Source: an uncultured Chlamydiae bacterium
GTDB taxonomy: Bacteria; Chlamydiota; Chlamydiia; Chlamydiales; Parachlamydiaceae
Length of the DNA stretch: 64,000 nt
Direction of reading: 5' to 3'
NCBI GenBank assembly: GCA_963754655.1
Contig: CAVWGN010000001.1
Span: 1,312,001-1,376,000, forward strand
Shown here: positions 20,036 through 61,108 of the stretch, piece after piece
Numbering within the stretch: position 1 is the stretch's first letter
Layout of the letters: each line of letters starts with the position of its first letter
Translations under genes and position numbers: made by a program
The notes under the pieces: generated by a model
The model's input: only the letters and a program-made list of their open reading frames with translations
Database searches by the model: none
What the model was told of the DNA's origin: nothing

Positions 20036-22213
20036 ATGATGATGATGCAGCCAACCACGTTTGAAGAACATTTTTATGATCAACTTTTGCGCATTATCGA
20101 GGCAAGACATCATCAGCCTCATGCTCTTTTAGGCCTCCACCCTTTTTTTGGAGAAAGCAAAGTCATTCGCCTTTGGCGTCCAGGTGCTCAGCAAATTTTC
20201 TTAGAAGTTTTTGGAACTCTTGTGGAAGCGCGTAAAATTCACGAAGCAGGAATTTTTGAATATGTGGTTCCTCAGCATACAACTCTGCATGATTATCGCG
20301 TCTTTCATCAAAACGGGCTTTTAGCGCATGATCCCTATGCCTTTTTGCCTACATTTGGCGATTTAGATCAATATTTGTTTGGTAAAGGAGTGCATTATCA
20401 GCTTTATCAGAATATGGGAGGACGCCTCACTCATCACCAAGGGGTAGCAGGCGCTAAATTTTCTGTTTGGGCACCCAATGCCAGGGGAGTTTCTGTTATT
20501 GGTGATTTCAATTATTGGGATGGCCGATTGAATCCTATGCGTATCATGGGTTATTCTGGTGTCTGGGAGCTTTTCATTCCAGGATTGGTGGAAGGGCAGA
20601 AGTATAAATTTGAAATCCAAACTCAGCAAGGCGAGCGGCTTGTCAAAGCTGACCCTTATGCTTTGATGAGCGAAATGCGGCCGGCCACAGCTTCGGTTCT
20701 CGCCAATATTGAGCGTTTCCAATGGAGTGATCATAGCTGGATGATTGAACGTAGCCATCGGAATATTCAATCGCATCCCATGAGTATTTATGAAGTGCAT
20801 CTCGGTTCTTGGCGTAAACAGGATGATCATTTTCTTAATTATCGAGACCTTGCACATCGGCTAGCCCTCTATTGCCTAGAAATGGGATTTAACTACATTG
20901 AACTTCTTCCCATTCAAGAACATCCGCTGGATGAATCATGGGGATACCAAGTATCGGGTTTTTATGCCCCGACAAGCCGTTTTGGAATGCCTGAAGATTT
21001 TATGTACTTTGTCAATCATTTGCACCAAAACGGGATTGGAGTTATTCTCGATTGGGTGCCAGGCCATTTTCCCACAGATGATTTTTCACTGGGCCGATTC
21101 GATGGTTCTGCTCTCTACGAACATGCCGATCCTCGCCAAGGATATCATCCTCATTGGCATACGCATATTTTTAATTTCGGACGGCATGAAGTCACAAATT
21201 TTCTAATTGCCAATGCCTTATTTTGGTTTGAAGCAATGCATGTGGATGGCTTAAGAGTGGATGCCGTAGCTTCAATGCTTTATTTGGATTACGGACGTGA
21301 AAGTGGTGAATGGATTCCCAATTTGTATGGAGGAAAAGAAAATTTACAGGCCATTGAGTTTATCAAGCACATGAACTCCATTGTCCATTCTCGTTGTCCG
21401 GGGATCCTTACGATTGCTGAGGAATCGACCTCCTTTACAGGAGTCACCCATCCAGTTGACAAAGAAGGGCTGGGATTCGATCTCAAATGGAACATGGGGT
21501 GGATGAATGATACCTTGCGTTATTTTTCCAAAGATCCTATTTACCGACATTACCACCATCACGATTTAACGTTTGGATTGATTTACGCTTTTTCTGAACA
21601 TTTTATCCTTGTCTTTTCTCATGATGAAGTTGTGCATGGCAAGCGAGCGTTATTAAGTAAAATGCCGGGGGACATATGGCAGCAGTTTGCCAATTTACGC
21701 TTGCTTTTGAGTTACATGATGTGCCAGCCAGGAAAAAAATTGATCTTCATGGGAGGGGAAATTGGACAATGGAATGAGTGGAATTGCAAGCGCGAAATCG
21801 AATGGTCTTTATTGGATTACCCCACTCACCATGGCATTCAACAGATGGTCAAAGAGTTGAATCACTTTTATCAGGAGCATCCGGCTCTGTGGGAAAGAGA
21901 CTTTCATTACGACTCTTTCCAATGGGTCGATTTTTTCGATACTCAAAATAGCGTCATCAGTTATTTGCGTAAAGGAGAAAACGAGAAGCTCTTTTGCGTG
22001 CACAATTTTACCTCTGCTTATCATCCCCAGTATGTCTTTCATTTTGGCTCTTTCCACCATATCGAGGAAATTTTTAATTCCGATGCGGAAAGATATGGCG
22101 GATCAAGCAAGTTAAACACACAGCCAGAGGTGATTCAGGATTCAGAGGGTCAAACCATTGGATTAAGAATTGCTTTAGCTCCTCTTGCCACTATGATTTT
22201 CAAAATCCACTAG
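20036..22213 (+). CDS. glgB: 1,4-alpha-glucan branching enzyme
   Basis: FSVWAPNA, IYEVHLGSW, SWGYQ, DWVPGHFP, DGLRVDAVASM, AEEST, SHDEVVHGK GH13 motifs. Confidence 0.98.
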   Translation: MMMMQPTTFEEHFYDQLLRIIEARHHQPHALLGLHPFFGESKVIRLWRPGAQQIFLEVFGTLVEARKIHEAGIFEYVVPQHTTLHDYRVFHQNGLLAHDPYAFLPTFGDLDQYLFGKGVHYQLYQNMGGRLTHHQGVAGAKFSVWAPNARGVSVIGDFNYWDGRLNPMRIMGYSGVWELFIPGLVEGQKYKFEIQTQQGERLVKADPYALMSEMRPATASVLANIERFQWSDHSWMIERSHRNIQSHPMSIYEVHLGSWRKQDDHFLNYRDLAHRLALYCLEMGFNYIELLPIQEHPLDESWGYQVSGFYAPTSRFGMPEDFMYFVNHLHQNGIGVILDWVPGHFPTDDFSLGRFDGSALYEHADPRQGYHPHWHTHIFNFGRHEVTNFLIANALFWFEAMHVDGLRVDAVASMLYLDYGRESGEWIPNLYGGKENLQAIEFIKHMNSIVHSRCPGILTIAEESTSFTGVTHPVDKEGLGFDLKWNMGWMNDTLRYFSKDPIYRHYHHHDLTFGLIYAFSEHFILVFSHDEVVHGKRALLSKMPGDIWQQFANLRLLLSYMMCQPGKKLIFMGGEIGQWNEWNCKREIEWSLLDYPTHHGIQQMVKELNHFYQEHPALWERDFHYDSFQWVDFFDTQNSVISYLRKGENEKLFCVHNFTSAYHPQYVFHFGSFHHIEEIFNSDAERYGGSSKLNTQPEVIQDSEGQTIGLRIALAPLATMIFKIH

Positions 22214-22423
22214 TACTCAACCACACTAGTTTTGTGTATTTAGATTGCTTGAAAGCGCCCGCGGTTGAATTGGCGTAAGTGGGTCAATATTAGCACAATA
22301 TGGACCCAGTTACGCCAATTCAACCCCGGGGCTAGGGTGTTCATTTTTTGCACAAAATGAACACCCTAGCCCCGGGCTTTGAAGCAGTTCCAATGGGCAA
22401 AAACTAATGTGGTTGAGTACTAG
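22210..22423. mobile_element. MITE-like element D (CTAG ends) carrying palindromic cassettes E and F
   Basis: Terminal inverted repeat CTAGTACTCAACCACACTAGTTTT...AAAACTAATGTGGTTGAGTACTAG; left CTAG overlaps the glgB TAG stop; related copies at 33223, 54171 and 60402. Confidence 0.85.
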
Positions 22424-22543
22424 AGGAAGAATAAATATTAGACAGAACTGATGCAACTCAATCCGTTTGGCGCTATTCTCAAATGTCTCTATTTTGTATA
22501 ATCCTACTATCCTCCTATCATTATTTCTACACAATATAGTACT

Positions 22544-59417: not shown

Positions 59418-59535
59418 CTTGTTCAGGAGTGCAACTTTTATTTATTAATATATTTATCAGTTCTTAACAATGTTTTTATTTGTTTTTTATTAACTTTTAT
59501 TAAATTGTATAATAAATAAATTATGGAAGTGTAAA

Positions 59536-60405
59536 ATGGTTAAAATTAGTAGAGAGCCTCCTTATGATTTTTACACTTATTTCGAGAAGGAAGAAAGTGG
59601 CGTATTGCTAGACGATTGGTATGATGAAAATGTAACTTCTGATCGGGTCTTTGAAGAGGCAGAATTAGCTGATCTTATCTCTCCCTTGATGAAAGGACAA
59701 AATGGAGATAGGATTGAAAAAATTACAAATCAATTTATTGAGAGTTTGTATGCAGTTGCGAATCAAGACCAGCAAACGGAAGGTGAGATTGCAACGGGAC
59801 CTTATCATTCTCCTGGCTCACCGAAGCTAGAAAGTCTTAAATTTACTCAGTCTATTGCCTCACGTTCTTATTCAAGAGATACTAATTTTTATGAAGAAAG
59901 TCATTTAGAGCAACCTTTACGCATACAACATGTTGTCAGTGATATTTTATCTACAGCAGCTTATCTTTTCTTGGGCTGGGATCCGTTAAATGGTCAGAAG
60001 GACGATAAAACAATCAAAGAAATAAAAGCAAATTTGTATAAGAATCGCGTATTTTGGCAGAAGGAGTTAAAAAACTATTACTCTTCTTATTTCCAAGATA
60101 AAATGGAACTAGCCTTTTATAAAGCGGAGCAATTAATCCAAAGTCAGATGGAAGCTCAAAAGTGGGCATTTATTCAACGATTGACACTTTATGCGACTTT
60201 AATTATTGCTGCCGTTGGAAAGTTACAGGGAAACAGGATGATGCTAATGTTCGGATTAAGTGCTTCTGTCGTTACCATTCTCTTTATGATTATCCATTAT
60301 GGATCGACTTCTTTTAAGCACGCGCAACAAGGAGCGGATTTAAGACAATCTCTTACATTAGCCGAAAACTTAAAAAATCTATTTAATGAATGGAATAATG
60401 GCTAG
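59536..60405 (+). CDS. Hypothetical protein with bilobed hydrophobic segment (Inc-like candidate)
   Basis: LTLYATLIIAAVG-KLQGNR-MMLMFGLSASVVTILFMII hydrophobic hairpin; hydrophilic N-terminus with no signal peptide. Confidence 0.7.
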   Translation: MVKISREPPYDFYTYFEKEESGVLLDDWYDENVTSDRVFEEAELADLISPLMKGQNGDRIEKITNQFIESLYAVANQDQQTEGEIATGPYHSPGSPKLESLKFTQSIASRSYSRDTNFYEESHLEQPLRIQHVVSDILSTAAYLFLGWDPLNGQKDDKTIKEIKANLYKNRVFWQKELKNYYSSYFQDKMELAFYKAEQLIQSQMEAQKWAFIQRLTLYATLIIAAVGKLQGNRMMLMFGLSASVVTILFMIIHYGSTSFKHAQQGADLRQSLTLAENLKNLFNEWNNG

Positions 60406-61108
60406 TACTCAACCACACTAGTTTTGTGTATTTAGACTGCTTCAAAGCCCCGGGGTTGAATTGGCGTAAGTGGTCAATATTAGCACAATATGGACCCAAT
60501 TACGCCAATTCAACCGTGGGGCTAGGGTGTTCATTTTGTGCAAAAAATAAGCGTAATAATTGGCATAATTAAATTGAAGGTCGCATGTTTATGCCGTCCT
60601 TTCAGGACTCGATGTCTTTTTGATAGAACCCAGGCCTCCGCTTCGCTGCGACCTGGGCTGTAACATGACGGCCCTTCAGGCCTTAACAAAAGAGATTTAA
60701 GTCCCTCTTCTATAGTCCATAAATAGTCCTTTTGTTAAGGCTTAAAGGGCCGGCCCTTCAGGCTTAACAAGAGATGTTTAAGTCCCTCTTCTATAGTCCC
60801 TAAATCATCTTTTTGTTAAGGCTTGAAGGGCCGTCATGTTACAGCCCAGGTCGCAGCGAAGCGGAGGCCTGGGTTCTATCAAAAAGACATCGAGTCCTGA
60901 AAGGACGGCATAAACATACGACTTTCAATTTAACTATGCCAATTATTGTAAAAAATAAAGCTCATTTTTTGCACAAAATGAACACCCTAGCCCCGGATTG
61001 AATTGGCGTAACTGGGTCCATATTGCTAATATTGACCCACTTACGCCAATTCAACCCCGGGGCTTTGAAGCAGTCTAAATACACAAAACTAATGTGGTTG
61101 AGTACTAG
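60402..61108. mobile_element. Full nested palindrome D-E-B-E'-D' (707 bp)
   Basis: CTAG ends; inverted arms from the termini to a duplicated central core; left CTAG overlaps the TAG stop of 59536-60405. Confidence 0.92.

Follow-up and report, generated by a model that had tools for sequence, protein, structure and literature searches.

Three mobile systems probably pile up in the nested hairpin repeats of an uncultured Parachlamydiaceae genome

Bacterial MITEs (miniature transposable elements bounded by inverted repeats) such as Correia, RUP and ERIC are 100-170 bp long, form hairpins, duplicate a TA on insertion and often lie at stop codons; correction of palindromes by template switching is an established process. 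Repetitive extragenic palindromes (REPs) are targets of insertion sequences (ISs), and according to the relevant part of Tobes and Pareja (2006, PMC1525189) the REP-targeting elements ISPsy8, ISRm22, ISPpu9/10, ISPa11 and IS1397 belong to the IS3, IS4, IS5, IS110 and IS256 families. In E. coli, TnpA-REP carries out strand transfer and builds mosaic bacterial interspersed mosaic elements (BIMEs), as set out in a portion of PMC3333891, and a passage of Di Nocera (2013, PMC3733652) places REP dimers regularly inside a longer palindromic shell in Anabaena variabilis and Halothiobacillus neapolitanus. Here we analyze nested hairpin repeats in a 64,000-nucleotide stretch (the window; G000:C1:1312001-1376000) of an uncultured Parachlamydiaceae bacterium, whose genome (G000) spans 3.16 Mb in two contigs, C1 and C2. 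An earlier note, made from the window alone, had described four loci there as one shell, D, that gains the hairpin cassettes E, F and B at a self-regenerating 8-bp palindrome, hereafter the octamer.

Our analysis indicates that three systems probably pile up at these loci: the hairpin element D[E], REP doublets seeded by REP-associated tyrosine transposases (RAYTs), and an unnamed DDE insertion sequence family together with its MITEs. Two items appear new, namely the orphan element D[E] and the unnamed ISs to which the stacking is ascribed; known processes (insertion into REPs, duplication of the target, repair of palindromes) explain most of the rest. The letters D, E, F and B are those of the earlier note; boxes alpha and beta and all further module letters were introduced here, other genomes and loci carry G- and L-numbers, and G000 is counted among the 300 genomes of the order used below. 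On the G000 chromosome, 16-mers with at least six occurrences span 13.5%, and six queries taken from the window matched 347 G000 loci. The four loci are real, with correct coordinates and a D arm common to all, and the layouts first proposed for three of them, D[F] (54171-54320), D[E,F] (22210-22423) and D[E,B,E'] (60402-61108), match the sequence. Hairpin folding lies far above that of shuffled sequences at the latter two (z = -16.5 and z = -43.3, respectively).

D and E together are a single non-autonomous hairpin element of about 165 bp that is older than the inserts. E had been taken for a gained cassette; it is instead the ancestral center of D, as a 121-bp query of D arm plus E recovered the conserved D[E] form in 37 of 300 genomes of the order, across many families (E <= 0.01; G117 was left out of this count and of the B-tip DNA search below). 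A pattern scan for box alpha returned at least 119 stretches. The 123 alpha matches yielded 85 unique copies with a partner arm, 72 of which fall into three end classes (32 and 21 copies with a TA duplication, 19 with a 3-bp TWA duplication), with 13 unclassified. The 72 classed copies are all 157-166 bp long, and alpha lies 37-42 bp from the tip. Their arms covary: 53 of 70 pairs show two-sided (compensatory) change among 30 full copies, which were hand-chosen and in which the invariance of alpha was imposed by the search pattern, while the near-invariance of beta and the kept alpha/beta mismatches were not.

As the earlier note had proposed, D is non-autonomous and mobile, with 147 tips genome-wide and copies inside other repeats whose unfilled form is common. 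D[E] displays the traits of a MITE, being short and non-coding with inverted ends and a target duplication, which is visible in insertions into known repeat arms and in tandem copies sharing one end. The D tip provides the stop of a frame of at least 150 codons in 7 of 132 cases, two of them in the window, compared with 0.55% for all such 4-mers. D[E] copies L213, L236, L246, L256 and L217 lie in bins titled Acidobacteriota, Verrucomicrobiae, Alphaproteobacteria and Cytophagales, through either transfer or mis-binning. At L225:1847-4018 and L200:1856-3475, D[E] sits inside a stop-free frame upstream of a long open reading frame (ORF), and a D+B+IS locus with an identical left flank occurs on both chromosome (C1:8077) and plasmid (C2:34011). 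A D[E] search of plasmids gave no match, and box alpha was absent from viral contigs. We regard the 118 metagenome stretches matching the 16-nt D tip as chance matches because none has the D[E] profile. An attC reading of E was rejected, its boxes being oriented wrongly relative to the attC consensus.

The search for IS or RAYT genes with matching ends, which the earlier note had suggested, identified an IS with B's ends in the relative G020 and none for D. This IS is 1,728 bp long and contains a 454-aa frame as well as a short ORF, with a probable frameshift site rich in A; its 15-bp inverted repeat matches the B tip at 14 of 15 bases. B and F thus share ends with an autonomous partner present in G020, not in G000. 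The G020 protein has no Pfam or NCBIfam match, Pfam searches with 56 family members gave only weak, mostly coiled-coil matches, and a PDB sequence search with the transposase found nothing; the nearest named Atlas clusters, ISL3-type and Mutator-type (0.79), serve as a lead only. In its AlphaFold model (pLDDT 89), the predicted fold resembles hAT, P and IS256 transposases, with matches to Hermes (Z 14.3, rmsd 4.9, 314 aligned), the P element (12.4) and ISCth4 (11.4). The invariant residues D88, D156, D182 and E353 and the near-invariant H185 occupy positions compatible with this model and fit a DDE triad plus DxxH motif, for which we propose catalytic roles.

Homologues of the IS protein were detected in 28 of 401 genomes and in 16 plasmid records, annotated as hypothetical or unannotated; the matches listed include 200 homologues, with chlamydiae and cyanobacteria among the carriers, and viral contigs contained no transposase homologue. 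Those in cyanobacterial plasmids are annotated "hypothetical protein". Duplications of 9 bp flank the homologue loci L409, L410, L412, L415 and L436, and a Nostoc plasmid copy combines B-like ends with a 9-bp duplication. G000 itself harbors ten full copies of a sister lineage (32% identical), nine of which have perfect 9-bp duplications. Their sites are GC-rich and near-palindromic and mostly read as REP hairpin stems or similar, a description drawn from these ten sites without a formal consensus tally. Four sister copies adjoin B, one of them with J in between, and a second G000 lineage, represented by one copy near C1:426,700-428,500, carries J's ends. Transposases of the family are encoded at L385:137-1498, C1:70390-71709 and C1:427158-428342. 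A family of hypothetical proteins thereby gains a function, ends and a duplication length, and one of its lineages prefers REP stems. Two other DDE ISs insert at fixed points of B's REP unit, at C1:8200-9720 (about nine more copies) and C1:761,700-762,600 (about five more).

Judged by their sequences, B and F behave as MITEs of this unnamed family, as does J and probably N. Among 172 B ends, 27 carry the exact octamer, 111 a strict GC-stem pattern (background 0.04%) and 154 a loose one (background 1%), and most lie in REP stems outside D. Where B stands beside a D arm (n = 48), the bordering box is beta in 45 cases and alpha in one. Flush direct repeats with at most one mismatch peak at 9 bp in the B/F copies with unlike flanks (13 of 53; lengths of 8 and 10 bp gave 5 and 7, respectively), a class that wrongly takes in some copies with D on both sides of B; for 28 of the 53, the empty site as reconstructed is present elsewhere. 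For J and N, flush repeats occur solely at 9 bp, in 11 of 53 and 11 of 15 copies, respectively. Elements with B tips in relatives show perfect 9-bp duplications in REP-like stems, in G009 (three copies) and G131 (one). The B-tip DNA search gave mostly weak chance matches, with real loci in G009, G131, G005 and G284, and the B-tip pattern occurred in 7 of 401 genomes.

The REP cores point to a separate source. G000 has nine matches to the Y1 transposase family, and the units found inside B, H-K, G, N and one further family come from the flanks of five RAYT types. These five distinct types (G000:C1:395846, 2429452, 2542121, 2802252 and 2939324) each possess their own three-hairpin unit, and long inverted arms surround the type at 2939324. 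The unit within B resembles a REPIN, the doublet form of REPs, in flanking a RAYT gene and recurring as inverted doublets genome-wide. Because it flanks a RAYT gene, this Acido-Lenti-1-like core is probably a DNA REP. The H outer end is a RAYT 3' end and is also identical to the initial 10 nt of the IS end in G000, so a reading of it as nothing but a RAYT 3' end is incomplete.

These data suggest how the stacks may have formed. D[E] inserts with a TA duplication, as its flanks show, and RAYT genes, associated with three-hairpin REP doublets across the genome, may have seeded them through a presumed RAYT activity. The unnamed IS and its MITEs (B, F, J and probably N) would insert into GC-rich near-palindromic 9-mers and duplicate them, as seen for the IS and proposed for B in G000; their targets would mostly be REP stems, and D's box beta would also fit. 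Stacking would result because each insertion copies its target, the two copies allowing later elements to land side by side. Hairpin-driven repair, by deletion between direct repeats and by copying one arm from the other, could then yield D[B], D[F] and D[E,B,E'], convert alpha into beta and trim junctions towards a perfect octamer, after which the composite would be mobile on D's ends.

Such arm-copying repair probably symmetrizes the stacks: the two arms of a D copy are more alike than shuffled pairs, 11 of 12 D[B] copies are beta/beta, and E' is an inverted E. One D-arm variant adjoins B in 15 of 15 cases, compared with 48 of 233 overall, and we infer from this that D+B composites moved as units. 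The self-regenerating site of the earlier note survives in part, since a target remade at each insertion accounts for the stacking of B and F; what is remade is a 9-bp target duplication rather than a dedicated 8-bp site. Shared target choice coupled with palindrome repair can therefore mimic a programmed cassette array.

Several observations weigh against this account. The similarity of the arms within one D copy (5.6 edits per 40 nt, versus 9.4 when shuffled, with a minimum of 8.3 in 500 shuffles) is inflated by subfamily structure. The 9-bp repeat is retained in just the 13 of 53 G000 copies given above and is exact in 2, and many copies better fit an inverted repeat; we attribute this weak signal to later arm correction. 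H..H shows no duplication (0/15), and neither do the IS loci L408, whose left flank runs off the contig, and L419. Targeting of stems does not hold for the whole family, since the target of the Nostoc copy is AT-rich. G000 contains no IS with B's own ends, which calls for a lost copy or cross-mobilization. Orthologous empty sites do not establish the order of events, which is likewise our reconstruction. In G001 and G003, glgB directly neighbors ligA and D is missing, but divergence is too great for the empty site to be read; G002 is not syntenic.

We considered three other explanations. An empty D shell could acquire E, F and B by site-specific recombination at a dedicated 8-bp palindrome, in the manner of a miniature integron. 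The octamer is indeed concentrated at these repeats (57 of 62 genome-wide occurrences), cargo is combinatorial across about 200 G000 loci, and the genome-wide search for an empty D retrieved a near-empty 99-bp copy at C1:792006. However, that copy is the only one, the form conserved over many families is D plus E, and 10 of 12 simple D[E] copies in G000 carry two unlike boxes, alpha and beta. The octamer is the middle of box beta; it occupies 6 of 10 inner junctions (counted by eye), whereas the left junction at 22210 is the distinct, conserved box alpha rather than a damaged octamer. The finding that the earlier note said would refute its reading, namely modules lacking the octamer, was made genome-wide: it is missing from most module ends, never occurring at J, K or inner H ends (0/145 for J, 0/83 for H), and no single dedicated site marks every boundary. 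Since an IS with B's ends exists, the supposed cassettes have a transposase family of their own and are not recruited by D. We therefore consider this explanation very unlikely.

A RAYT-driven, BIME-like mosaic, in which single strands are broken and joined anew by Y1 enzymes at REP stems, with the shared junction as their crossover point, finds support in the RAYT-flanking units above and a precedent in E. coli TnpA-REP. Against it stand the exact 9-bp duplications made by DDE ISs at the same junctions, the lack of a D core at any examined Y1 gene end and the absence of a Y1 match from G205, which has many D[E] candidates. It is improbable as a general explanation, although a RAYT process probably accounts for the REP cores and perhaps for H..H. 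Long palindromes are also prone to mis-assembly from collapsed or folded-back reads, but the copies are diverged, their flanks are unique, arm mismatches are kept and the same modules and 9-bp duplications recur in independent genomes, leaving an artefact scarcely credible. Stacking by target-copying insertion, followed by palindrome repair, remains our preferred interpretation.

The mover of D is a separate matter. No transposase for D was found, and no family recurs near 108 D[E] loci. The D core lies at a gene end in none of 21 Y1 loci (G000 and four relatives) and none of 8 IS630 loci; in the limited Y1 sample D[E] does not flank a RAYT gene, the single match being about 700 bp away. IS701 was rejected as a partner, with no PF13546 match in G000, as was PF13359, whose matches are confined to the IS5-like copies of G000. 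IS630 offers little end identity, the G000 IS630 having just the outermost 5 nt beyond the TA in common; its transposase is present in G000 and in 0 of 5 D[E]-bearing relatives, four of which are fragmented drafts.

When the length of the duplication is added to the distance from tip to alpha, each of the four end classes gives a sum of about 40-41 nt (38+2, 39+2, 38+3 and, by eye, ~32+9). The fourth is the G009 form, in which B's ends surround an alpha-E-beta core (profile E 5.7e-12); the elements L378, L391 and L405 of G009 are ~151 bp long and have this structure. This form could mean that the core was captured by an end derived from an IS, or else that D and B have a common origin. Ordinary DDE chemistry does not explain why alpha lies at a nearly constant distance from the duplication's outer edge. 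Speculatively, and with the odds against it, D[E] may be an old, phylum-wide non-autonomous class. Recognition would then depend on the mismatched inner boxes instead of the tips, with cleavage a set distance away from those boxes, and the class would be moved by an enzyme not so far connected with transposition or persist through end swapping among unrelated transposase families. D[E] is a repeat spread over environmental chlamydiae whose mover is a testable question.

Within the window (Table 1), the layout D[B, truncated] of the earlier note holds at locus 3 for the D left arm and the left part of B. The D right end is missing, and we regard the locus as a chimera rather than a simple truncation because the sequence past 33679 resembles both the spacer belonging to a 328-bp family of REP doublets (~85%) and a RAYT gene 3' end (79%). 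The adjacent IS607-like element starts ~87 bp beyond the locus and so did not truncate it directly. As the earlier note had stated, the window lacks a cognate transposase: those present are IS607-like and IS5-like (one IS5-like copy at ~43.9-44.6 kb), neither with D or B ends. Rfam gave no match at gathering score inside the window; near locus 4 there were merely hairpin look-alikes and Acido-Lenti-1, and D and E correspond to no Rfam family. Positions 11200-12620 hold further palindromic modules (A, B, G) between ORFs of 2428 and 1499 aa without a Pfam match, and 43286-48209 contains paralogues in tandem, each of which has three repeats of the eukaryote-like Myb type; the IS5-like element breaks the first of these paralogues.

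Table 1. Repeat features of the window and one sister IS copy (window positions unless a contig is given)
Feature	Coordinates	Strand	Remark
Full B outside any D shell	11389..11782		without octamer; missed by the earlier note
Locus 1: native D[E], F insertion at box beta	22210..22423		left end at glgB stop codon
D left outer arm, type a	22213..22250	+	~38 bp from TA to box alpha
Box alpha	22251..22269	+	one base from order-wide consensus; adjoins B rarely (1/48)
E	22265..22323		ancestral D center, not a cassette
Putative 9-bp target duplication, left copy	22324..22332	+	includes the octamer, part of box beta; 2 mismatches vs right copy
F	22333..22368		36-bp element, two B tips only
Putative 9-bp duplication, right copy	22369..22377	+	
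D right arm, type b, plus 4-bp end	22377..22423	-	
Locus 3: D left arm and box beta	33223..33275	+	arm variant always adjoining B
B left tip/arm with inverted three-hairpin REP units	33277..33679		without B right tip and D right arm
Spacer of another REP-doublet family	33680..33768	+	RAYT 3' end-derived
IS607-like element, resolvase and TnpB	33769..35599	-	neighbor, not cognate; 11 near-identical full genome copies
Decayed alpha-E relic of a D[E] copy	48247..48321 (approximate)	+	E 1.8e-6 within window
Locus 2: D[F]	54171..54320		flanked on either side by box beta; loss of E; F variant 54229-54264
Locus 4: D[E,B,E']	60402..61108		fully symmetrized stack; left end is stop of ORF 59536-60405
E, first copy	60456..60513	+	
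B	60523..60989		MITE; its ends are those of the unnamed IS family, its interior a three-hairpin REP unit doublet
Three-hairpin REP unit	60586..60683	+	near-identical to downstream flank of RAYT C1:395846; Acido-Lenti-1 36.4 bits (gathering 37)
E', inverted second E	60998..61054	-	
Sister IS copy	G000:C1:69957-71802		nine further copies elsewhere

We found no published description of the chlamydial repeats or of the B-ended IS family in a literature search that was poor in subscription journals and did not extend to ISfinder sequences. Like the REP-targeting ISs in the consulted portion of PMC1525189, the present family breaks a REP palindrome at a fixed point and leaves direct repeats; unlike them as treated there, it is covered by neither a Pfam nor an NCBIfam model, one target is common to several of its lineages and its MITEs are stacked in tandem. 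The G020 IS shares with p-MULT and other Mutator-like transposases a DDE triad in an RNase H fold, a helical insert, a DxxH motif and a 9-bp duplication (8-9 bp in p-MULT), and its probable -1 frameshift between two ORFs recalls ISMich2. Its insert is longer than in p-MULT (~197 aa versus 99-138), DxxH lies farther past the second D (26 aa versus 11-19), the inverted repeats are shorter (14-16 bp versus 18-39) and the top fold match is Hermes, loosely ahead of the P element and ISCth4. Because these spacings fall outside the p-MULT definitions, we do not file the G020-type IS under p-MULT.

The REP component resembles the REPINs and BIMEs described with RAYTs in the sections consulted of PMC3333891 and bioRxiv 2021.07.10.451892 in its inverted REP doublets, units flanking RAYT genes and mosaic arrays, and differs from what is given there in its three-hairpin units of ~100 bp wrapped in IS-derived or D ends. 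B's core comes close to the Acido-Lenti-1 RNA motif (RF01687, part of PMC2864571), scoring just below gathering (Table 1); unlike the RNA motif as presented in that part, the unit is the flank of a RAYT gene. The consensus sequences of Di Nocera (PMC3733652) resemble D's arms, by eye only, and the passage concerned mentions its shells without empty forms or a mechanism. Finally, D[E] differs from Correia, RUP and ERIC in that conservation falls on the inner boxes and the length, not on the tips, and in making both 2-bp and 3-bp duplications.

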